From a virus (Duplodnaviria > Heunggongvirae > Uroviricota > Caudoviricetes), in IMG/VR virus record IMGVR_UViG_2541047828_000002, positions 1 through 39,138 of that record: a stretch of DNA of 39,138 bases. One strand, 5' to 3'. The notes under the pieces were generated by a model. It was not told the DNA's origin, did no database searches, and worked only from the letters and a program-made list of their open reading frames with translations. The position numbers and the translations under genes were made by a program. Within the stretch, counting starts at the first letter, position 1. Each line of letters begins with the position of its first letter. Below, piece by piece: positions 1-39,138 of the stretch.

Positions 1-1254
1 ATGCTGGAACAAATGGGCATTGCCGCGAAGCAAGCCTCGTATAAATTAGCGCAACTCTCCAGCCGCGAAAAAAATCGCGTGCTGGAAAAAATCGCCGATG
101 AACTGGAAGCACAAAGCGAAATCATCCTCAACGCTAACGCCCAGGATGTTGCTGACGCGCGTGCCAATGGCCTTGGCGAAGCGATGCTTGACCGTCTGGC
201 ACTGACGCCCGCACGGCTGAAAGGCATTGCCGATGATGTGCGCCAGGTGTGTAACCTCGCCGATCCGGTGGGGCAGGTAATCGATGGCAGCGTACTGGAC
301 AGCGGCCTGCGTCTTGAGCGTCGTCGCGTACCGCTGGGGGTTATTGGCGTGATTTATGAAGCGCGCCCGAACGTGACGGTTGATGTCGCTTCGCTGTGCC
401 TGAAAACCGGTAACGCAGTGATTCTGCGTGGCGGTAAAGAAACCTGTCGCACTAACGCGGCAACGGTGGCGGTGATTCAGGACGCCCTGAAATCCTGTGG
501 CTTACCGGTGGGTGCCGTGCAGGCGATTGATAATCCTGACCGTGCGCTGGTCAGTGAAATGCTGCGTATGGATAAATACATCGACATGCTGATCCCGCGT
601 GGTGGCGCTGGTTTGCATAAACTGTGCCGCGAACAGTCGACGATCCCGGTGATCACTGGTGGTATAGGCGTATGCCATATTTATGTTGATGAAAGTGTAG
701 AGATTGCTGAAGCATTAAAAGTGATCGTCAACGCGAAAACTCAGCGTCCGAGCACATGTAATACGGTAGAAACGTTGCTGGTGAATAAAAACATCGCCGA
801 TAGCTTCCTGCCCGCATTAAGCAAACAAATGGAGGAAAGCGGCGTGGCATTACACGCAGATGCAGCTGCGCTGGCGCAGTTGCAGACAGGCCCCGCGAAG
901 GTGGTGGCTGTTAAAGCGGAAGAGTATGACGATGAGTTTCTGTCATTAGATTTGAACGTCAAAATCGTCAGTGATCTTGACGATGCCATCGCCCATATTC
1001 GTGAACACGGCACACAACACTCCGATGCGATCCTGACCCGCGATATGCGCAACGCCCAGCGTTTTGTTAACGAAGTGGATTCGTCCGCTGTTTACGTTAA
1101 CGCCTCTACGCGTTTTACCGACGGCGGCCAGTTTGGACTAGGTGCGGAAGTGGCGGTAAGCACACAAAAACTCCACGCGCGTGGCCCAATGGGGCTGGAA
1201 GCACTGACCACTTACAAGTGGATCGGTATTGGTGATTACACCATTCGTGCGTAA
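1..1254 (+). CDS. proA: gamma-glutamyl phosphate reductase (proline biosynthesis), full length 417 aa
   Basis: ORF starts at nt 1 ([16 protein letters not shown]...) and ends with TAA at 1252-1254. Sequence matches remembered E. coli ProA almost throughout. Lies immediately upstream of thrW, as on the E. coli chromosome. Confidence 0.95.
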
Positions 1255-1368
1255 ATAAAACCGGGTGATGCAAAAGTAGCCATTTGATTCACAAGGCCAT
1301 TGACGCATCGCCCGGTTAGTTTTAACCTTGTCCACCGTGATTCACGTTCGTGAACATGTCCTTTCAGG

Positions 1369-1444
1369 GCCGATATAGCTCAGTTGGTAGAGCAGCGCAT
1401 TCGTAATGCGAAGGTCGTAGGTTCGACTCCTATTATCGGCACCA
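1369..1444 (+). tRNA. thrW: tRNA-Thr (anticodon CGU)
   Basis: 76-nt GCCGATATAGCTCAGTTGGTAGAGCAGCGCATTCGTAATGCGAAGGTCGTAGGTTCGACTCCTATTATCGGCACCA. Has D-loop AGCTCAGTTGGTAGAGC, anticodon loop with CGT, T-loop GGTTCGACTCC and encoded CCA. Matches remembered thrW, a known phage attachment site. Confidence 0.9.
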
Positions 1445-1458
1445 TTTAAATCAATAAG

Positions 1459-2622
1459 TTACACATCATTAGTACCTTCCTTATTTTTTGACTGGGACAA
1501 ATTTGGGACCGATGGGTTCAGGATCGAGTCTATTTGCCGTGCGTGTTCGGTAAGGTGATTAGGTGCAAGGTGAGCATATCGACGAACCATTTCGATAGAC
1601 TCCCAGCCTCCCATTTCCTGTAACACTGACAACGGGACTCCGGCTTGAACCAGCCAACTTGCCCAGGTGTGTCTCAAGTCGTGAAATCTGAAATCATCAA
1701 TACCAGCCCGTCTCAGCGCCGCTTTCCAGGCTGTGTTTGCGTCATACCGCATCTTCCTTACTGTTGGCGCTTTCGTTCCGTCTGGTTTGGTACAGCTTTC
1801 CTTGTACACAAATACCCAACGGTGATGATTCCCGATTTGTTTTTTCAAAACGCGACATGCAGTATCATTCAGCGCAACGCCGATTGCGCGGTTTGATTTA
1901 CTCTCTTCCGGGTTTATCCATGCCACCCGGCGCTGCATATCTATTTGTTGCCATTCAAGGTTGATGATGTTCGAGCGTCTTAAGCCTGTTGCCAGTGCAA
2001 ATTCAACAACAGACTTTAATGGCTCCGGACATTCATCAATCAGCCTTTGTGCTTCATGGGGCTCCAGCCAGCGGATCCGTTTATTCTTTGGTTGAGGCAC
2101 TTTAATAATTGGTGCCTTATCCAGCATTTTCCATTCACGCTCTGCGGCTCTTAGTAGGGCCTTTATAAATGAAAGATGCGTAGCCTTCGTTGCAACGGAC
2201 GCTGGTTTTGGCGTGTATTCTGGAACAGGTTTCCCTTTTTTTCTGCATGCTTCTGCCCTGAGTTTCCAGTTTTCCTCATGACGCCGGTTCGTCATTTTCT
2301 GCATTGCTGAATAAATTTTTGATTCAGTAATGTCTCTTAGTTGCATTCCTGCGAAATGTTGAAGCCAGAATCCGATCCGGCTTTTGTCATCGTCCAGTGA
2401 TTTTTTATGTGCTTTCTCTTCAAGCCACCTGACACATGCTTCCTCGAACGTTATATCAGGTATTTCACCAAGTTTACTGACCCGCCATGCTTCAGCCTTT
2501 AGCTTGTCATGGAGTTCTGTCGCCTGCCTTTTGTCCTTTGTTCCAAGAGACTGTTTAAATCTTTTACCGTTCGGCAATGTGAAACTGGCGTACCATATTT
2601 CACCTCTGCGGAAGAGTGACAT
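1459..2622 (-). CDS. int: prophage integrase, tyrosine recombinase (P22/SfV-type)
   Basis: 387-aa [25 protein letters not shown]... ending ...[39 protein letters not shown], which carries the R..HxxR..Y catalytic signature of tyrosine recombinases. Strong resemblance to remembered P22 Int. Sits 15 bp from the tRNA 3' end. Confidence 0.93.
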
Positions 2623-2849
2623 TTTCTTTCCTCTGTTATGCCATCACCCGCGCTCACCTGGACAGTATGCAGCGGAGACTGAAGAGCCGCAATGCAGGCT
2701 TGTCGTGTTGTGAGGTAAGGAGATTTATTCTTAGTGGGATCTTTGCGTGTTGCCTGAAGACGCCCTGTGCGTATCCAGTTAATAGCAGTCGGTCTGGATA
2801 TCTTGAGAAAATGACAGGCCTCATCGAGTGTGAGGCTGTATGGCTCCAT
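2499..2849 (-). CDS. xis: excisionase (Xis, HTH DNA-binding)
   Basis: Internal Met start of ORF 2499..2933 gives a 116-aa protein [33 protein letters not shown]... with an excisionase-type HTH. Its 3' end overlaps the int 5' end as in P22/lambda. The start is chosen from remembered P22 Xis. Confidence 0.75.
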
Positions 2850-3193
2850 TATTTCACCTCTTGCTGTGACATTGTTGAAAAACGGATACCAGCTCGTTGC
2901 TGCCAGACGATCCAACCGAGAGTCATATCCCATGCCATGTATTCATTATCGCCGTTTTTTGCTCTCCGACGATCGACTGTTTTACCGAAACGCTTTTCCA
3001 TAAATAATTCATAGGCTGCGCGTTCATCTGGCTCAACTTCCAGAGATGCCAGTGCAATCCGTGCCAGTTCTAAATCATTTTCAAGCTCAGCGCGAATCTC
3101 AGCGAATGCACTCTGTGTTAAGGCGAACTCAATGCTCTGCACTTTATTCCGTGCGCGCTCAAGCAGTGCATGGTAGTTAATTTCGGTTGTCAT
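2849..3193 (-). CDS. hypothetical early-left protein (114 aa)
   Basis: ATG-initiated ORF that overlaps xis by 1 nt and the upstream gene by 4 nt (ATGA-type coupling). No family recognised. Confidence 0.5.
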   Translation of the reverse strand: MTTEINYHALLERARNKVQSIEFALTQSAFAEIRAELENDLELARIALASLEVEPDERAAYELFMEKRFGKTVDRRRAKNGDNEYMAWDMTLGWIVWQQRAGIRFSTMSQQEVK

Positions 3194-4068
3194 ACCCCTA
3201 CCTCTTCGAATTCCAATTTCAATTGATCACCCCAGATTTCACATGACTCTGAACACGAACCGGTATCGAATCGCCTGGCCTGTACCATCGCCTGATACAA
3301 ATTTCTGTAGTCGCTGTTGGCAGACATTCTGGCAATTCCGTCAAGCGTCAGGTGACCACGGTACATAATGTCTTTACCTGTTCTGCGATGACCATCCCTG
3401 ACGTGTTTGCCTGTAACCAGCTCATTAAAAACTCGCATCAGACCTGGTTCGTCTTTACATGCAAGCCCCAGCTTTTGCGTTGACTTTTTGATGCAGAAAA
3501 CACAGTTCCCGAGATGCTCCGGGATTTGCAAATCAAAAGGTTGTTTTCGCCACCACCGGATAACATCCGACTTATCAAAATCTGACAGCTCGGCAAGATA
3601 CCGGACGCCCGATTTCGGTTTCAGCCTACGGGGTTCGTCTGCACGAATACCCAGCCATGTGATGTAATTACCTCGCCCGAAATGGTTATCGCAGTATTTC
3701 GTGAAAGGGATGAGTTTTAGCCTGTCAGTACAGAACGCGCCGCCGATGTATGGCGTGCCGTACTTTTTAACCATGTCCATAAACGGTTTAAGCACCGGCA
3801 TTCGTGTCTGAATATCCTTTGGCTCCCATTCTGTATAACCATTTGGCTGCCCAAGCTCAGGATTTATATCGACCTGTAACACAGTTAGTGGTATGTCCCA
3901 GAACTTTACAACCTCCCGGATAAAGCGGTATGTCAGCGGATGTTCGCAACCGGTATCCATAAAGATATAGCAGACGTTATTGCCAGCCTTTCTTTGTTCT
4001 TCCATCAGGTGAACAAGATATGCGGATGTTCTCCCGCCAGAAAAACTAACTACATGAGTTATGCACAT
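3190..4068 (-). CDS. PAPS-reductase-like PP-loop ATP pyrophosphatase family protein
   Basis: Motifs SFSGGRTS (PP-loop-like) and FMDTGCEHPLTYRFIREV, comparable to CysH LTDTGYLFPETYRFIDEL. Start taken at the internal Met (MCITHVV...) with a 10-nt overlap of the upstream ORF stop; the longer 4185 start would overlap the upstream gene by 127 nt. Confidence 0.7.
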   Translation of the reverse strand: MCITHVVSFSGGRTSAYLVHLMEEQRKAGNNVCYIFMDTGCEHPLTYRFIREVVKFWDIPLTVLQVDINPELGQPNGYTEWEPKDIQTRMPVLKPFMDMVKKYGTPYIGGAFCTDRLKLIPFTKYCDNHFGRGNYITWLGIRADEPRRLKPKSGVRYLAELSDFDKSDVIRWWRKQPFDLQIPEHLGNCVFCIKKSTQKLGLACKDEPGLMRVFNELVTGKHVRDGHRRTGKDIMYRGHLTLDGIARMSANSDYRNLYQAMVQARRFDTGSCSESCEIWGDQLKLEFEEVGV

Positions 4069-4595
4069 TTGCGTAATTCCGATAACTCGTTGAAGCGTTC
4101 CATAAACATCCCGTAGGCATGGCCCGGTGCCAGTGGAATAACTTTGAACATCTCTGTTGCCGGGATACCTTCCAGTACAGGCCATAAAGAGCCATCATCA
4201 AGCCCGAGATCACGGCGTTCGGTTGCCAGCATAATGAGATCGGCATATTTCACGGGCGTGCTCATAACCGGGGGTAACCCGTATTTCTCACGGATTACGG
4301 CGTCTATTTTTTCTTCCATCCGTTTATAGCCAGGAAGAAGGCGTTTCAGTTGCGCGGGGATGTCCTGACAATACGCTTCTGTTGCATCATGCATTAACGC
4401 TTCAAAGGCGAACTCTGGCGCCACAAGTTGACTGCACAGAACGGAATGCTGCGCCACGCTGTAAAAATCCGGCAAGTGTCCCGCGAAGCGGCAGATATTT
4501 GAAAGCGCACCGGCGATATCCTCGATATAAATATCGTCAATGGTGGAGTTGATATAATTGAACTTCTTACCGGTAAGAGTCTGGATAAAACTCAT
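4059..4595 (-). CDS. HD-domain phosphohydrolase (YfbR/YfdR-like 5'-deoxynucleotidase family)
   Basis: 178-aa ORF with H...HD...D signature (SVAQHS ... LMHDATEAYCQDIP). RBS AAGGAGAAC lies upstream on the minus strand. Size and motifs match the prophage HD-hydrolase class. Confidence 0.7.
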   Translation of the reverse strand: MSFIQTLTGKKFNYINSTIDDIYIEDIAGALSNICRFAGHLPDFYSVAQHSVLCSQLVAPEFAFEALMHDATEAYCQDIPAQLKRLLPGYKRMEEKIDAVIREKYGLPPVMSTPVKYADLIMLATERRDLGLDDGSLWPVLEGIPATEMFKVIPLAPGHAYGMFMERFNELSELRKCA

Positions 4596-4752
4596 CGTTA
4601 GTTCTCCTTAATTGGTGCGCTGCACCGCACGATTTTTGGTTGCACGAATCCCTCGCCATAAGGCGATTAAAAGTTTTGGTTTCGTTTCAGTAAATGCCCC
4701 ATCCAGAGGCACTTAGTGCAACGGGCGGCTGCCATCGCCAGTTATTTTCCCC

Positions 4753-4837
4753 ACTCAATTGAAAGCGCGTTCCGGAGGTTTTGGACTTAACGAACTGGCA
4801 CTTAATGACAAGGGACAGAACGCGCTTTCAGTTGAGT
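4753..4837. repeat. 20-bp inverted repeat (1 mismatch) flanking a 45-bp spacer
   Basis: Left arm ACTCAATTGAAAGCGCGTTC (4753-4772) and right arm GAACGCGCTTTCAGTTGAGT (4818-4837). Not followed by a T-run on either strand, so not a canonical intrinsic terminator. Confidence 0.6.
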
Positions 4838-4990
4838 AAAAAGGTGGCTATTCATCAGAACATTGTCGCCTTCATTAGGTTTATCTGTTGAAGATCTGTA
4901 AGCCGCTTATAAATAAGTAGATATAAGATATTAGGAAAAGAAGAAGGACGTTATAGTTTTATTTGTGATGTGCAAAGTATATTTGAATAA

Positions 4991-5007
4991 AACCCGCCCA
5001 GCGGGTT
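4991..5007 (-). terminator. hairpin downstream of the 5018..5614 gene (putative intrinsic terminator)
   Basis: AACCCGC-CCA-GCGGGTT stem-loop, followed on the minus strand by TTATTCAAAT. Lies 11 nt past the stop codon. Confidence 0.45.
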
Positions 5008-5017
5008 CTAAAGTGTT

Positions 5018-5614
5018 TTAATGATTGTCGTGATAATTAATTGGCTCATCATTTTTTTTGTCTGGCATAGTTATGGACCACTTTATATTCTTTAGGCTGT
5101 TATGTTTTTTATTGACCTTAAGCTCTCTCTTTGCTTCAGAGATAATATCGTCTAGTAATACTTTTAATTTATCAAGTCTTGACTTGTGGGCATCTATCAA
5201 CTCTATACTATCAAACTCCCATTGTATAAATAGATTTTCTTCATTTTCAATGAATGAACGGATTTTATCCCCACACTCTTCTGTTAAGAATAATGAAGAT
5301 AGCTCACCTATTCTACTGAGTTTTTCAAGCTCATTAGAGAAAGATTTGCTAAGGATTTCATTTTCTTCTTTTGATTTGTAACTAAAGTAGGTTGGGAATT
5401 GTGAGGTGTGATGTAACTCCTGTTTATACCAATAGTCAGCTGTGTTTTTTAGAAGATAAACACAGTCAACTAATTGCGTATACAAATCTATTCTTTTGTC
5501 CCACCATTTTTCTTTATAATAACGGCCGAGTGCATATCGCGCAGTTAAGTAAGCTGCGATTGAGCCTGTAACAAGTCCGATAATTACCTTTGATATAAGG
5601 TCATGCCAATCCAT
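5018..5614 (-). CDS. hypothetical membrane-anchored protein (198 aa) in the immunity region
   Basis: Strongly AT-rich ORF MDWHDLISKVIIGLVTGSIAAYLTARYAL... with one N-terminal hydrophobic helix and a charged helical remainder. RBS AGGGA upstream. Flanked by hairpin terminators at 4991-5007 and 6074-6091. Confidence 0.6.
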   Translation of the reverse strand: MDWHDLISKVIIGLVTGSIAAYLTARYALGRYYKEKWWDKRIDLYTQLVDCVYLLKNTADYWYKQELHHTSQFPTYFSYKSKEENEILSKSFSNELEKLSRIGELSSLFLTEECGDKIRSFIENEENLFIQWEFDSIELIDAHKSRLDKLKVLLDDIISEAKRELKVNKKHNSLKNIKWSITMPDKKNDEPINYHDNH

Positions 5615-6066
5615 TTTTATTTTCCCTACATTATGTTATATAATTGTTCATATCATACAATTGTTGAGTATAGATGTCTCGTTATTCATCAACATTTACT
5701 CCTGTTAAATTAGGGGGAGGATGTATTAAAAATATTCATCTGGGTCGTCTAAATATTTTTGATAAACTAATAGCAATAACACTATCAGTATTGCCTGCCC
5801 TCACGTCGTTCTTGCTCTCGCGCGATTTTTAACTAAACACTAGCAGGATTTATCATGGTGCTACGCTACATTTACTTGTAGGGAGCTAAACAGATCATTG
5901 ACGCTGAAAATATTCAAATTGTTAAAGAGCGAAGCGTCCTATGGGCGTTTTGTTGCTAACGAATCATCTTGGACTTCATATGCCCCAGGCGGCTACTTCG
6001 TGGGCATCCTGCCTGTTTGTTGTTTCGTTTTGGTACATTATGTATCTGCGGGGTACATTGTCAAGT

Positions 6067-6091
6067 ATAAAAAAACCTGCCGAAGCAGGTT
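6067..6091 (-). terminator. intrinsic terminator after the repressor gene
   Basis: AACCTGC-CGAA-GCAGGTT hairpin (6074-6091), followed on the minus strand by a 7-U run. Lies 13 nt past the cI stop. Confidence 0.6.
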
Positions 6092-6103
6092 CATAAATAT
6101 TGA

Positions 6104-6778
6104 TTAGGCCTTTATTTTGTATCTTCTTGGTTTTCCCGAGAAAATCACAGTGCCAATTATAGAGCAATTACCGTTAATCTTAATGTAGGGCTCAGGCCAG
6201 TTTGGGTTTAATGCTTTGAGATAACGCTGTGTTCCATCTTCTATCAATCGCTTGAAGGTGGTTTCGCCTGTATCGTGCATCAACGCAATAACGTCGTCAC
6301 CGTGGCAAGCAGGGACTTCAGGATCAACAAAAATCATGTCTCCCGGACGGTACTCATCAATCATTGAATCACCAATCACCCGCAAGATATAAGTCATTTC
6401 GCCACAGGGTACAGGGCAGGGATAAGTTTCTGCTGTGCTCAAATCAACCTCAGAATAGCCAACTTCTTTCCATGCTCCGGCCTGTACCCATGATATGACA
6501 GGGACTAACGTTATTTGTTTGTTAGTGATTGAAACATCAGTTTTTTTTGTGATGTTCGTTGTCTGGTGTTCTTGATCGAGCCATCCGACAGGCAGGTCGA
6601 AACATTTTTCAATGTGTCGTGCCATGCTGTCACCGATATTTTTAGTAGCACCATCTCCCATAAACCTGCTGGTCTGGGTTGGCTCGCGATCAATCATAGT
6701 GGCAAAGGAAGAATTCCCGCCAACACCATCTCTCAGTTTTCTGGCGTTAGACCGCCGGATGTCATGGATTGTTTTCAT
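6104..6778 (-). CDS. CI-type prophage repressor (N-terminal DNA-binding domain plus S24 LexA-like autopeptidase domain)
   Basis: C-terminal VIGDSM (Ser nucleophile) and FKRL (Lys), with overall resemblance to the lambda cI C-terminal domain (VSGDSM...FKKL). Divergently oriented to a cro-like gene. Confidence 0.88.
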   Translation of the reverse strand: MKTIHDIRRSNARKLRDGVGGNSSFATMIDREPTQTSRFMGDGATKNIGDSMARHIEKCFDLPVGWLDQEHQTTNITKKTDVSITNKQITLVPVISWVQAGAWKEVGYSEVDLSTAETYPCPVPCGEMTYILRVIGDSMIDEYRPGDMIFVDPEVPACHGDDVIALMHDTGETTFKRLIEDGTQRYLKALNPNWPEPYIKINGNCSIIGTVIFSGKPRRYKIKA

Positions 6779-6793
6779 AACGAAATTAAAACC

Positions 6794-6814
6794 CTTGTAC
6801 CGCCAAGGTACAAG
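6794..6814. promoter_or_regulatory. putative OR operator 1 (palindrome CTTGTACC-GCCAA-GGTACAAG)
   Basis: Perfect 8-bp inverted arms in the 90-bp divergent cI/cro intergenic region, 16 bp upstream of the cI start. Confidence 0.5.
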
Positions 6815-6842
6815 TATCTTGAAGGTTCATTTTAATCATGTA

Positions 6843-6865
6843 ATATGTACACTGGAGGTACATAT
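6843..6865. promoter_or_regulatory. putative OR operator 2 (palindrome ATATGTAC-ACTGGAG-GTACATAT)
   Basis: Perfect 8-bp inverted arms sharing the GTACA half-site with operator 1. Overlaps the cro RBS GGAGG. Confidence 0.45.
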
Positions 6866-6868
6866 TGT

Positions 6869-7069
6869 ATGAAAGCGTATTGGGACTCTTTAACCAAAGA
6901 ACAGCAGGGTGAGTTGGCCGGAAAAGTTGGCTCAACACAAGGCTACTTACGGCTGGTTTTCAATGGCTATAAAAAAGCCAGTTTTGTGCTGGCTAAAAAA
7001 CTTGAGCAATGCACGTCAGGTGCAATTACGAAATCTGACTTAAGACCGGATATCTATCCGAAAGATTAG
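6869..7069 (+). CDS. Cro-like HTH regulator
   Basis: 66-aa product MKAYWDSLTKEQQGELAGKVGSTQGYLRLVFNGYK... with an HTH-like segment. RBS GGAGG 9 nt upstream. Divergent from cI. The upstream ATG at 6845 lacks an RBS. Confidence 0.7.
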   Translation: MKAYWDSLTKEQQGELAGKVGSTQGYLRLVFNGYKKASFVLAKKLEQCTSGAITKSDLRPDIYPKD

Positions 7070-8952: not shown

Positions 8953-9441
8953 ATGAGTCTTTTGAATGACGTTCAGAAATTCATTGAAGCCCATCCGGGC
9001 TGTACTTCCGGAGACATTGCGGATGCTTTTGCAGGTTACTCACGGCAGCGCGTTCTGCAGTCAGCAAGCAAGTTACGTCAGAGTGGGCGTGTGGCTCACC
9101 GTTGTGAAGGAGATACACGCAGACATTTCCCGCGCCTGACTGAGAGAGCGCAGGAGCCGGAACCACAACCAGTTCGTGAAACCAGACCTGTGCGCAATTT
9201 CTATGTCGGCACTAACGATCCCCGGGTGATTTTGTGCCTGACCCGCCAGGCTGAAGAACTGGAGTCTAGGGGCTTATACCGTCGTGCTGCAACGGTGTGG
9301 ATGGCGGCATTCCGTGAAAGCCACTCCCAGCCAGAACGAAACAATTTTCTGGCGCGTCGTGAGCGGTGCTTACGGAAAAGCAGCAAGCGCGCTGTATCGG
9401 GTGATGAGTGGTATCTGTCAGGGAATTACGTGGGGGCTTAA
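8953..9441 (+). CDS. hypothetical regulator-like protein (162 aa; possible PerC-like motif)
   Basis: ATG at 8953 directly after the replication gene. Segment LESRGLYRRAATVWMAAF resembles the PerC-family signature from memory. Weak call. Confidence 0.4.
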   Translation: MSLLNDVQKFIEAHPGCTSGDIADAFAGYSRQRVLQSASKLRQSGRVAHRCEGDTRRHFPRLTERAQEPEPQPVRETRPVRNFYVGTNDPRVILCLTRQAEELESRGLYRRAATVWMAAFRESHSQPERNNFLARRERCLRKSSKRAVSGDEWYLSGNYVGA

Positions 9442-10094
9442 TGAGTAATAAATATTGCCAGGCGCTGGTGGAGTTGCGAAACAAACCAGCCCATGAACTG
9501 AAGGAAGTGGGCGATCAGTGGCGCACACCGGACAACATTTTCTGGGGAATTAACACCCTGTTTGGCCCGTTTGTTCTGGATCTGTTTACTGACGGTGATA
9601 ACGCCAAATGCGCCGCGTATTACACGGCGGAAGACAACGCGCTGGCGCATGACTGGTCAGAACGTCTTGCGGAGCTTAAAGGTGCTGCCTTTGGAAATCC
9701 TCCATACAGCCGCGCCAGTCAGCATGAGGGGCAATACATCACCGGCATGCGTTACATCATGAAACATGCCAGTGCCATGCGTGATAAGGGCGGGCGCTAT
9801 GTTTTCCTGATCAAAGCTGCCACCAGCGAAGTGTGGTGGCCGGAAGATGCGGACCATATTGCTTTTATTCGCGGGCGTATTGGTTTTGAACTGCCTGCCT
9901 GGTTTATCCCGAAGGACGAGAAGCAGGTGCCGACAGGAGCGTTCTTCGCTGGTGCTATTGCTGTTTTCGACAAGACCTGGAAGGGACCGACAATCAGCTA
10001 CATCGGGCGCGATGAACTTGAGGCATGTGGTGAGGCCTTTCTGGCGCAGGTTCGCCAGCAGGCGGAAAAACTGGTCAGGGAGATGGCGGCATGA
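9441..10094 (+). CDS. phage DNA N6-adenine methyltransferase (Dam-like family)
   Basis: Catalytic (D/N)PPY motif present as FGNPPYSR. ATG at 9441 overlaps the upstream TAA (TAATG). Typical nin-region gene. Confidence 0.8.
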   Translation: MSNKYCQALVELRNKPAHELKEVGDQWRTPDNIFWGINTLFGPFVLDLFTDGDNAKCAAYYTAEDNALAHDWSERLAELKGAAFGNPPYSRASQHEGQYITGMRYIMKHASAMRDKGGRYVFLIKAATSEVWWPEDADHIAFIRGRIGFELPAWFIPKDEKQVPTGAFFAGAIAVFDKTWKGPTISYIGRDELEACGEAFLAQVRQQAEKLVREMAA

Positions 10095-12617: not shown

Positions 12618-12634
12618 TTTGGTGGAGAAAGTTG

Positions 12635-13000
12635 ATGCGTGATATTCAGATGGTTCTGGAGCGTTGGGGGGCATGGGCGGCGAGTGATAGTTCAGGCGTT
12701 GATTATTCACCTATAGCCGCTGGGTTTAAGGGACTTCTTCCCTATACAAGCAAGAAACGCTTGGCTTGTTCGGATAGTGATGCCTTAATTATTGAAGGTT
12801 GTCTTGCTCGTCTAAAGCAAAAAAGGCCGGACGAACATTCGCTTCTTGTTGCCCATTACCTATACGGTATCTCTAAAAGAAAGCTCGCCAAGGCTCGTAA
12901 AAAAGATGAGAAATTGATACGTATAGAAATACAGCTAGCCGAAGGATTTATTGATGGCTGCCTTTCCATGCTAGATCTAACATTAGATTTGGACGTTTAA
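12635..13000 (+). CDS. late-gene antiterminator Q (short Q family)
   Basis: MRDIQMVLERWGAWAA...IAAGFKGLL... resembles the remembered short Q-type antiterminator family. RBS GGAG 7 nt upstream. Sits at the end of the early-right operon. Confidence 0.65.
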   Translation: MRDIQMVLERWGAWAASDSSGVDYSPIAAGFKGLLPYTSKKRLACSDSDALIIEGCLARLKQKRPDEHSLLVAHYLYGISKRKLAKARKKDEKLIRIEIQLAEGFIDGCLSMLDLTLDLDV

Positions 13001-13028: not shown

Positions 13029-14360
13029 TTACTGGATGAATGACATTTGATTAATATATTTTATCAATAACTCTCTGGGTGTAGTACTCCAAAAATTTAT
13101 GTGTTCATAATCAGTATAAACATTTGTGAATTTTTTAAGTTCTTCATCACTTTTAGGGGCAAATCGCTCATTAAGAGTAATACTGTCTTTAATTATTCCG
13201 AAGAATACAATGGATATTTCAGGGATTTGCGATCTTCTCTCATAAGAATAAGGTATTTCTTTTATGTTAAGCAGGTCTGCTAAATAAGATATAGATTCAG
13301 CGGTAATTTCTTGTTTTAGTTTTTCCTTGTTACCAAAGCAATGTATGAAGGCAGCTACGACAAAGATCATATTTATTAAAGGATCACTGCTTTTGTTCTC
13401 ATCGTCGTTTAACAGTTGAAAAATGTTAAGATTGCGTGAAAATGTTTGTGTTTCACGTAATGATAAGTTGGTTCGTTGAATTAAATCACGGATAAAGTAA
13501 CCTGATAATCTATTGATTTTATTCAATAACCTTGTTTTTTCTACAAGGTAATCCCAATATATAACAGAGGCTTTACATACGTTGTGACCATTTATCAAAC
13601 ATGTATCTGGAAGCGTGATGGTATATTTTATAAACTTGTCAAGATACTTTTGTGAGTTAATGCTATAACCATAAATATGATTTATAGATGCTTTTAATTG
13701 TTCTGTGTTTGTAACTAAAATAAAAAAGACATTATTGATGTCAAAAATGTGTTTTATTGTTTCAATGACATTTGTTGAAAAACTCGGCTTACATCGGTCT
13801 AATTCATCAATTATAATTACGATTTTTTGATTTTTTGATATGCTTTCGATGCAGGATTTAAGTGAATTTATGTTTTTCTCTGAGTCCATATGGTCTTCAA
13901 GCAAATTTTCAATAGTCCCATCTATTGCTGCATTGCTTGCTTTCTTCATCGCATCTTGGAATTCTTCGGCAACTTCACTAGCCTCCTGTCGTAAAAACCA
14001 ACCTGCACCAGCTTTTAGTACCGTTTTTAAACCAAAGCGAATTGCAGGAAGAGATCTCTTAATGAAGTGTTGTTTTTCTTCCTCAGGCAAAATGCTGGCA
14101 ATTGCAGAGGTTATGAGAAGTAATGGAGATTCTGCATGATCCCCTTTAAAGGCATCAATATAAACAACTTTAGATTCAGTTTCTTGCTCAATAATGAGAT
14201 TTTTCAGTTTGATACTAAATTCTGTTTTCCCTGTTCCCCATGCGCCGTCTATTACCAGTGGTGAAATGTCTGCCTCTGGTTTTAGCAACTTGATGATATT
14301 TTCAGCGATGTTTCTTCGTTGGAACTCGTCACGTTCAGTGAAAGATAGTGTATCTAACAT
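13029..14360 (-). CDS. KAP-family P-loop NTPase (PifA-like), candidate abortive-infection/defence protein
   Basis: 443-aa AT-rich ORF on the opposite strand to the phage backbone. Walker A VIDGAWGTGKTEF and Walker B-like KIVIIIDELDRCKP are hallmarks of KAP NTPases. RBS AGGAG upstream. Confidence 0.85.
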   Translation of the reverse strand: MLDTLSFTERDEFQRRNIAENIIKLLKPEADISPLVIDGAWGTGKTEFSIKLKNLIIEQETESKVVYIDAFKGDHAESPLLLITSAIASILPEEEKQHFIKRSLPAIRFGLKTVLKAGAGWFLRQEASEVAEEFQDAMKKASNAAIDGTIENLLEDHMDSEKNINSLKSCIESISKNQKIVIIIDELDRCKPSFSTNVIETIKHIFDINNVFFILVTNTEQLKASINHIYGYSINSQKYLDKFIKYTITLPDTCLINGHNVCKASVIYWDYLVEKTRLLNKINRLSGYFIRDLIQRTNLSLRETQTFSRNLNIFQLLNDDENKSSDPLINMIFVVAAFIHCFGNKEKLKQEITAESISYLADLLNIKEIPYSYERRSQIPEISIVFFGIIKDSITLNERFAPKSDEELKKFTNVYTDYEHINFWSTTPRELLIKYINQMSFIQ

Positions 14361-36746: not shown

Positions 36747-37814
36747 TTAATGAAATTTATCTCGGATGAATTGTTGCGATGGCTTTTCAATGAATATATA
36801 TGACATATAGCTAATTGCCATTAATGTAAGCATGAATAAAATGAATACCTTGGGGCTGTAAAAAAGATCGCGTCCATAGCCAATCTTGTCAGCTAAATAA
36901 ACAACAATGATTTGCAAAGGAAAATGTAAAAGATAAGATGAATAACTGATATCACCCAACCATTCAATTTTCTTCCCAAAATCGTTTCGTATTGCGCTAA
37001 TTGATACAAGGAAAAAGATTATGGAGGTAAATCCGAATAAGATAATTGAGAATATATCTGCTACTTGCAGGGTAAAGATAACTCCCCATGAGATCAATAG
37101 AAAAACACAAGCAAAAATAAAAAATAATTTTGCGCTAATATTTTTTATGACCGCAATCGTAATTTTATAGGTCAGACCACCAATAAAGAAAGAGAATGCG
37201 CCGATCATTATGGGATTGTTAATTTTGAAAAAGTAGTACGACAATGCAACTATTAAAATTGATATGAATGTTGTTTTTGATGTGAACTTGCATAATATAA
37301 AAAATATCATGTACATAAGTACTTCAATCGACACGGACCATGTCGGGGCGTTGAAGGACCAACCTCGCTCAAATCCCCATGATTGAATCATCAATAAATT
37401 CAGAATGGCATGGTAAATGTCATTCATAGGATAAACAAAAAAATAATTATGACTTTTAAAGAAAATAATTTGTAATATTGCCACGACAGCAAATGTAAAT
37501 ATATAAAGTGGATATAATCTACTGACACGGTTAACTATAAAAGTTTTTGCTGAGGTTTTATTGCTGTGTATATTGTCAGCGTATAGATAAAAAAATATGA
37601 ATCCAGAAATCATAAAAAACAATTCGACAGCATATAAACCGTAATGATAAAAAACGGAAAAAAATTCATAAAAAGGTTGGCGGTTTATGATTATGTCAGA
37701 TGCAGCATTCTTTTTCATAAAAAAATGTTGCCAATGCCATAACACAACGGAAAGTGCGGCAAATCCTCTCAGAACATCCAGGGTATATATTCTCTTCCCA
37801 AAAAAATTCGTCAC
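36747..37814 (-). CDS. acyltransferase family 3 integral membrane protein (O-antigen acetyltransferase-like)
   Basis: 355-aa, very AT-rich ORF with about 10 hydrophobic segments. N-terminus LDVLRGFAALSVVLWHW is the characteristic acyltransferase_3 start. GTG start with RBS AAGAGG. Confidence 0.8.
   Translation of the reverse strand: MTNFFGKRIYTLDVLRGFAALSVVLWHWQHFFMKKNAASDIIINRQPFYEFFSVFYHYGLYAVELFFMISGFIFFYLYADNIHSNKTSAKTFIVNRVSRLYPLYIFTFAVVAILQIIFFKSHNYFFVYPMNDIYHAILNLLMIQSWGFERGWSFNAPTWSVSIEVLMYMIFFILCKFTSKTTFISILIVALSYYFFKINNPIMIGAFSFFIGGLTYKITIAVIKNISAKLFFIFACVFLLISWGVIFTLQVADIFSIILFGFTSIIFFLVSISAIRNDFGKKIEWLGDISYSSYLLHFPLQIIVVYLADKIGYGRDLFYSPKVFILFMLTLMAISYMSYIFIEKPSQQFIRDKFH

Positions 37815-38364: not shown

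Positions 38365-39138
<774 letters not shown>

Follow-up and report, generated by a model that had tools for sequence, protein, structure and literature searches.

Adjacent ninC and yfdR genes in the early-left arm of an SfV-like prophage: lambdoid mosaicism and a candidate role for NinC beside DNA methyltransferases

Do two genes that share 10 nucleotides in the early-left arm of a lambdoid prophage form a functional unit, or were they set side by side by recombination? The question is raised by IMG/VR virus record IMGVR_UViG_2541047828_000002 (Caudoviricetes), of which we analysed positions 1 to 39,138, the whole stretch being referred to here as the window. Within it, a gene for a PP-loop protein and a gene for an HD-domain phosphohydrolase overlap on the minus strand (Table 1), and a sequence-only reading of this DNA had taken them for a CysH-like enzyme and an HD hydrolase that could act as a pair on nucleotide pools or on nucleic acid modification, as in some counter-defence systems. 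Our results show that both genes were already known, as members of the lambda NinC and YfdR families, and that their adjacency is ordinary lambdoid mosaicism. The explanation that best accounts for the data as a whole, and that we hold to be probable, is that independent ninC and yfdR genes were joined by recombination, with NinC as a putative adenylating anti-restriction enzyme and YfdR likely acting on deoxynucleoside monophosphate (dNMP) pools or on host replication. The observations behind it are family memberships, conserved residues, mosaic breakpoints and co-occurrence statistics.

By sequence comparison, the PP-loop protein belongs to the catalogued lambda NinC family: it shares 79% identity with lambda NinC (Orf290, lambdap64) over 285 of 292 residues and about 93% with the product of a left-arm gene that is annotated NinC in Stx2 phages, and it matches PHROG 424/33262. 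The HD protein likewise aligns as a catalogued member of the YfdR family, with 87% identity to E. coli K-12 CPS-53 YfdR over 178 of 178 residues and a match to phrog_318, and RefSeq names homologous copies yfdR. Both are real genes because their PHROG matches are as strong as E 2e-90 and E 1.7e-101, respectively, and near-identical copies of both sit in hundreds of E. coli genomes. The mechanical open reading frame of the PP-loop gene is 331 aa long, but the supported start is Met40 (position 4068), because lambda NinC has its N terminus there and RefSeq annotates a copy of 99.7% identity in the same way; the longer version, from an ATG at 4185, was rejected, as it would add a 39-residue extension that lacks a lambda NinC counterpart and would overlap yfdR by 127 nucleotides. 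The motifs picked out by the sequence-only reading are indeed present, SGGRTS at residues 10-15 and FMDTGCEHPLTYRFIREV at residues 36-53 of the PP-loop protein, together with the H...HD...D signature of the HD protein, whose residues H50, H69-D70 (with E73), D78 and D119 align with the solved HD protein 2gz4 (E 2.3e-13) and with an Aeromonas phage homolog.

The 10-nucleotide overlap, which that reading had also located correctly, is a property of the yfdR 3' end. In K-12, SfV and E. coli 0H26, yfdR has the same overlap with an unrelated, yfdS-like gene of 120 aa that starts with MRMNVF. The N termini of NinC proteins begin MCITHVV in the window, MSTHHVV in the Stx-phage copy and MINVV in lambda, and the first three codons of the window ninC (MCI) derive from the yfdR junction. 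Comparison with E. coli 0H26, whose HD allele, orf198 and cI are the same, gives homology over 1-3058 and 4061-7000; in between, NinC and the N-terminal part of the neighbouring small gene orf114 are swapped with genes like SfV orf28/29, exactly at the yfdR stop codon (4061), and the C-terminal part of orf114, up to 3058, is common to 0H26 and SfV. A viral contig (L007) with identical int, xis, orf114 and NinC, on the other hand, is about 100% identical to the window as far as approximately position 4200, after which identity falls to 60-74% inside yfdR. The yfdR allele of the window is chimeric in consequence (4200-4595), its 3' 140 nucleotides being about 100% identical to the L007 lineage and its 5' part belonging to the 0H26 lineage (97.7%), so that, as far as sequence comparison can tell, this yfdR is itself a recombinant; alleles more than 95% identical to it were found in 18 E. 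coli records only. We propose that ninC and yfdR are separate accessory genes within the early-left operon of this thrW-integrated, SfV-like lambdoid prophage, and that homologous recombination brought them together with the very common yfdR as the homology block.

The distribution of the two genes points the same way. Of 5,426 complete E. coli genomes, 2,940 contain yfdR-like DNA (3,855 places), 423 contain the NinC allele group of the window, and 282 have the two genes as an adjacent pair. NinC thus lies downstream of approximately 7% of E. coli yfdR copies, the others being accompanied by yfdS-like, Eae-like or other genes. In a comparison of close relatives (80 IMG/VR loci), NinC is 93-100% identical to that of the window at 61 of 63 close loci while the adjacent YfdR is merely 86-88% identical, and NinC alleles of 92-93% identity have no yfdR nearby. 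Farther afield, 47 diverse NinC loci were compared, each with 1.5 kb or more of flank on either side; an HD gene of the YfdR type falls within the flank at two of them and is adjacent at one. In E. coli prophages and lambda, NinC stands in the nin region (NinB-NinC-NinE) and no HD gene accompanies it, the early-left arm of Stx phages carries NinC without an HD gene, and no HD neighbour of NinC was found in Pantoea, Xenorhabdus, Oceanimonas, Moritella, Vibrio, Salmonella chi-like, Cronobacter or Riemerella elements. Across 50,697 phage records, relatives of NinC occur in 561 (Vibrio 340, Stx2a 62, Salmonella 62) and relatives of YfdR in 294 (Bacillus, Caulobacter, Escherichia, Vibrio, Pseudomonas and others), the two families having largely different host distributions among sequenced phages. 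The idea of a functional pair is left unsupported, because the overlap follows the yfdR 3' junction and because co-occurrence in related prophages is rare (282 pairs against 3,855 yfdR places).

Three further observations concern the spread of NinC. The allele group of the window is found at 72 of its 459 E. coli places on yfdR-less plasmids of 90-100 kb (e.g. NZ_CP077485.1, 91 kb), at about 91% identity; judged by size, they are probably plasmid prophages of the P1 type. A prophage remnant of Xenorhabdus bovienii (L091, 2210-3852) carries tandem PAPS_reduct genes of 252 and 283 aa, a pair of NinC paralogs. Copies 79-83% identical to the window NinC appear in assemblies labelled Pseudomonas, Kitasatospora, Oceanobacillus, Bradyrhizobium, Enterococcus and others (L102-L112, L116, L127, L128, L146, L157, L161), on contigs that are tiny or of about 48.4 kb, several with coverage near 1; in such GTDB species representatives they are almost certainly lambda-DNA contamination, and some 17 of the 62 genome-contig matches were left out of the set of 47 loci on this ground.

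What kind of enzyme NinC might be is best approached from its invariant residues, all of which are present in the window protein: the PP-loop SxSGGxxS, E42, K118, D144-E145, and five cysteines, C113, C189-x2-C192 and C272-x3-C276. These positions are kept in 105-108 of 108 representatives (one per 50%-identity cluster, sharing 28-54% identity with the query), as well as in 51 homologs that are closer, whereas C126, invariant among close homologs, is not conserved across the wider set and was discarded. The PP-loop of the window protein is the canonical ATP-type SFSGGRTS, and the C terminus of the protein reads GSCSESCE. By their position in the sequence, the cysteines would form a three-Cys site (C113, C189-x2-C192) and a dyad (C272-x3-C276) on a flexible C-terminal tail, of low confidence in the structural model, and this layout recalls the lineage of adenosine 5'-phosphosulfate (APS) reductase and DndC as well as three-Cys Fe-S PP-loop sulfur transferases. 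Lambda NinC is like the window protein in size and in all family-invariant residues and is likewise of unassigned function and non-essential. The two differ in location, since lambda and P22-like phages carry ninC between NinB and NinE in the nin region, within the rightward operon between the replication genes and Q, whereas in the window it lies in the leftward early arm between yfdR and xis. Nin-region placement is a positional habit rather than a defining trait, NinC being found in the left arm also in Stx2 phages (left of the repressor) and in a Pantoea prophage.

The family carries the database label of 3'-phosphoadenosine 5'-phosphosulfate (PAPS) reductase, and the description of the protein as CysH-like holds for its domain and fold only. 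The best Foldseek matches of NinC among solved structures are CysH and APS reductase (E 7e-5; template modelling score 0.37-0.49), but Pfam PAPS_reduct covers NinC residues 5-71 only, the profile alignment to solved CysH structures stops near residue 100 with SFSGGRTS opposite CysH SSSFG, and the CysH equivalog model (NCBIfam NF002537) scores 20.5 bits against a cut-off of 154. The hallmark of CysH is a C-terminal catalytic cysteine in an ECGLH motif; the NinC sequence has neither this motif nor the degenerate PP-loop that goes with it, and differs from CysH and APS reductase in its ATP-type loop and in its C-terminal half. NinC is a PAPS reductase in name only. As for the other PP-loop clades, NinC does not lie closer to QueC than to the rest, and its best match in a library of defence profiles is SspD (52.6 bits, E 1.3e-14), followed more weakly by BrxP and DndC (the latter 13.7 bits, E 5e-3). 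The SspD match joins NinC residues 5-152 to profile positions 2-125 of 277 and so spans the N-terminal half only, and neither DndC nor SspD profiles match NinC over their full length. SspD, DndC and BrxP have a PP-loop domain and conserved cysteines as NinC does, and NinC is smaller (292 aa against 468-481 positions for DndC profiles and 779 for BrxP). No DndA/D/E, SspA/B/C or BREX genes adjoin NinC in the window, nor were Dnd or Ssp partners present in any homolog context examined.

The recurrent partner of the NinC family is a DNA methyltransferase. Fusions to adenine methyltransferases were found in six of the 108 representatives (five to phage Dam, PF05869, and one to a D12-class enzyme), in both domain orders, and two closer homologs (P0074 and P0088) are methyltransferase fusions as well; fusions to an HD domain were found in none of the 108. 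At 21 of the 47 diverse loci a DNA methyltransferase gene lies on the same strand within the flank, being adjacent or fused at eight, and in a Pantoea prophage an MT-A70 methyltransferase gene overlaps the start of NinC. The fusion P0074, the one homolog with an experimental link, is p0018 of Vibrio phage 44E38.1, a PAPS-Dam protein; its PAPS domain shares 55% identity with the full-length window NinC (residues 3-282) and retains the PP-loop and all five conserved cysteines. Piel et al. (2022, preprint 10.1101/2021.05.05.442762) moved p0018 and p0019 into a sensitive phage, which then plated fully on a Dnd-carrying host, and they ascribe the escape from Dnd 'at least in part' to the PAPS domain; the anti-Dnd interpretation is taken up again, for Aca-regulated PAPS reductases, in a paper of 2026. 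JSS1_004, considered as a further anti-Dnd precedent of the PAPS-reductase-like type, was set aside, the paper in question being concerned with a kinase instead. Whereas the Vibrio protein has a C-terminal Dam domain, the Dam of the window is encoded by a separate gene on the other strand, 5.3 kb away, and is 28% identical to the Dam domain of P0074. This gene belongs to the SfV/CPS-53 backbone and is also present in 0H26, which lacks NinC, and in K-12 (yfdM, a truncated copy).

Taken with its conserved residues, this context suggests that NinC is most likely an ATP-binding enzyme that adenylates its substrate and does not reduce PAPS, and that its target may be DNA or host restriction, with DNA methyltransferases as partners. 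It would then counter restriction, for example by phosphorothioate-dependent Dnd/Ssp systems; the substrate, the putative metal cluster and the anti-restriction role we infer from such likenesses. A role in counter-defence or DNA modification is plausible for NinC alone. The part of the sequence-only reading that proposed modification or counter-defence consequently gains independent support for the PP-loop gene, from the Vibrio PAPS domain and the methyltransferase fusions and adjacencies, and not for the pair.

The YfdR family offers a role of its own for the second gene. The window protein scores 17.7 bits against the Pfam model of YfbR-like 5'-deoxynucleotidases (PF12917; gathering cut-off 25.9), and by this measure is a relative of YfbR proper rather than a member. 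K-12 YfdR has the same length, HD residues and 10-nucleotide downstream overlap, whereas the surroundings differ: in K-12 and SfV, yfdR is preceded by yfdQ and followed by yfdS/yfdT, in the window orf198 takes the place of yfdQ/yfdP and NinC with orf114 that of yfdS/yfdT. One study (PMC4776307), which also cites Zimmerman et al. 2008, describes K-12 YfdR as an HD protein with low-affinity nucleotidase activity, a dNMP phosphatase, and the same work reports that it binds DnaA via Phe46, competes moderately with DiaA and DnaB, and, with its neighbours, inhibits initiation at oriC when over-supplied. Distant homologs in lytic phages are placed in replication and nucleotide-metabolism modules, for example in phiKT (primase, helicase, HD, DNA polymerase), in a Bacillus phage, where the HD gene is found among those for thymidylate synthase, dihydrofolate reductase, thymidine kinase and Pol III alpha, and in Pseudoalteromonas phage PY6 (helicase, HD, nuclease, methyltransferase), which has no NinC there. 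By analogy, YfdR would likely steer dNMP pools or host replication early in lytic growth, and a role on dNMP pools or through DnaA is the more likely and most economical reading, one for which NinC is not needed.

Some of our data weigh against the explanation of two independent genes, one of them directed at restriction. Approximately two thirds of the E. coli genomes that carry the NinC allele group of the window have NinC adjoining yfdR. Aeromonas phage AeroV_348 shows an independent NinC-HD adjacency, the sole one found, with a 4-nucleotide overlap and a C5 methyltransferase and a nuclease next in order, its proteins being 38% (NinC) and 43% (HD) identical to those of the window; at an Erwiniaceae locus (L140), a YfdR homolog lies 1.6 kb upstream of NinC. 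These two loci leave a small probability of occasional synergy between NinC and YfdR. As regards anti-restriction, the anti-Dnd transfer paired the PAPS-Dam fusion with a second gene, the contribution of the PAPS domain not being isolated, and lambda NinC is non-essential and has no recorded interactions. The AeroV_348 cluster (L100, 2420-5494) is compact, with overlapping genes, and its NinC-like protein is 358 aa long with an insertion of about 45 residues.

A broader version of the proposed NinC function can be put forward tentatively. The whole NinC family, that of lambda included, might consist of DNA-directed, Cys/Fe-S-dependent adenylating enzymes working with phage methyltransferases against restriction (e.g. 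Dnd/Ssp), in which case the window would hold a 'split' PAPS-Dam, with NinC and Dam as separate genes (3190-4068 and 9408-10094). Weaker still is the suggestion that HD enzymes of the YfdR type sometimes join as a third partner, the example being the AeroV_348 cluster of NinC, HD, methyltransferase and nuclease genes. Among the alternatives to our explanation, the one that survives best, and which we nevertheless consider unlikely, is that NinC is a self-contained phosphorothioation enzyme of the DndC/SspD type, whose marks on phage DNA would mimic host self-marking. It would fit the ranking of SspD, BrxP and DndC among the defence profiles, the conserved cysteine set with a terminal dyad as described for DndC, and the occurrence of a homologous domain inside the Vibrio anti-Dnd determinant; the half-length SspD match, the low DndC score and the want of Dnd or Ssp partners beside NinC, here and in the contexts examined, speak against it. 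To our knowledge, no phosphorothioation has been reported for lambda DNA either.

Rather less probable is a translationally coupled two-enzyme module working on one pathway, in which NinC would, for example, adenylate or modify a nucleotide or DNA and the HD enzyme would remove a phosphate or AMP by-product. Such a module would account for the 10-nucleotide overlap, for the two genes being neighbours in 282 E. coli genomes and in the majority of viral contigs whose NinC alleles are closest, for the independent adjacency in AeroV_348, where the gene order is reversed, and for the two homologs in one arm at the Erwiniaceae locus. It is difficult to reconcile with an overlap that belongs to yfdR and is used by unrelated downstream genes, with the low share of yfdR copies that NinC adjoins, with HD genes adjacent at one of 47 NinC loci and HD domains fused in none of the 108 representatives, with alleles that do not co-diverge (NinC 99% against YfdR 88% identical), and with the largely different host distributions of the two families. 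That NinC is a genuine PAPS/APS reductase, an auxiliary metabolic gene boosting host sulfate assimilation during infection, we regard as very improbable given its failure against the CysH model.

In the window, proA, thrW and the adjoining integrase gene mark the left end of a lambdoid, SfV-like prophage that has integrated at thrW. The DNA of its int-xis region is 93-94% identical to that of Shigella phages SfV, SfII and SfIV, and the order leftward from the repressor is orf198, HD gene, PP-loop gene, orf114, xis, int. These five genes other than int are the only contents of the int-to-repressor interval; exo, bet and erf are all missing from it, as the sequence-only reading had remarked, and recombination genes are likewise missing from the early-left arm of SfV and E. 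coli 0H26, which is typical of SfV-like phages.

Table 1. Coordinates of the features discussed, as positions of the window
Feature	Position	Strand	Remarks
proA	1-1254		start of the window
tRNA-Thr(CGT), thrW	1369-1444
Tyrosine integrase (int)	1459-2622	minus
orf114, small protein	2849-3193	minus	phrog_660; 4-nucleotide overlap with the upstream NinC gene
NinC-family PP-loop ATP-pyrophosphatase-like protein, 292 aa	3190-4068	minus	database label 'PAPS reductase family'
Overlap, ATGTGCATAA	4059-4068	minus	10 nucleotides; covers the yfdR stop codon and the beginning of the next gene; conserved mosaic junction
YfdR-family HD-domain phosphohydrolase (5'-deoxynucleotidase family), 178 aa	4059-4595	minus
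orf198	5018-5614	minus	35% GC; phrog_17948; between the repressor and yfdR
cI-like S24 repressor	6104-6778
Stand-alone phage N6-adenine DNA methyltransferase (Dam, PF05869)	9408-10094	plus	early-right arm; Pfam Dam E 9.8e-46, PADLOC MTase_II E 3e-158

Copies of orf114 that are 98-100% identical flank NinC in a series of closely related loci (L005-L032) and are missing at more distant NinC loci, the gene being co-inherited with the closest NinC alleles only. The low-GC orf198 stands where SfV and K-12 have yfdQ/yfdP. Just past cI comes a terminator-like hairpin (6092-6073), followed at 6064-6037 by a promoter-like site (TTGACA/CATAAT, 11 of 12 matches), and orf198 resembles a moron with expression of its own. 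A scan for promoters and terminators inside the PP-loop/HD pair gave no informative signal, and the tRNA-Thr was the sole match in an Rfam scan of the window, which disclosed no RNA element at the locus.

Other parts of the window carry what may be cargo. The Q antiterminator (12632-13000) is closely followed by an island of 31% GC that encodes on the minus strand a KAP-family P-loop NTPase (13029-14360; Pfam E 9e-71). This protein matches PDC-S20, a candidate defence family of PADLOC (E 4.5e-177), and, more weakly, PifA, and is probably a prophage-borne defence moron. Just past the tail-fibre assembly gene, an acyltransferase of the Acyl_transf_3 family (36747-37814, minus strand) lies in a low-GC stretch (36-38 kb bins, 32-41% GC); it is likely an O-antigen acetyltransferase, a serotype-conversion cargo where SfV has gtrABV. 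At the right edge, an open reading frame with a LEM-3-like GIY-YIG nuclease domain (38365-39138, minus strand) is situated at or past the likely end of the prophage.

As found, the locus matters little, and the useful by-product of its analysis concerns NinC. The ninC gene has been in the lambda genome for more than 40 years with its function unassigned, and the 'PAPS reductase' label leads some authors to treat phage homologs as sulfur-metabolism genes, a treatment against which the present evidence argues. Because the NinC family is tied to DNA methyltransferases and to an anti-Dnd determinant rather than to sulfur assimilation, the orphan ninC of lambda gains a directly testable hypothesis.

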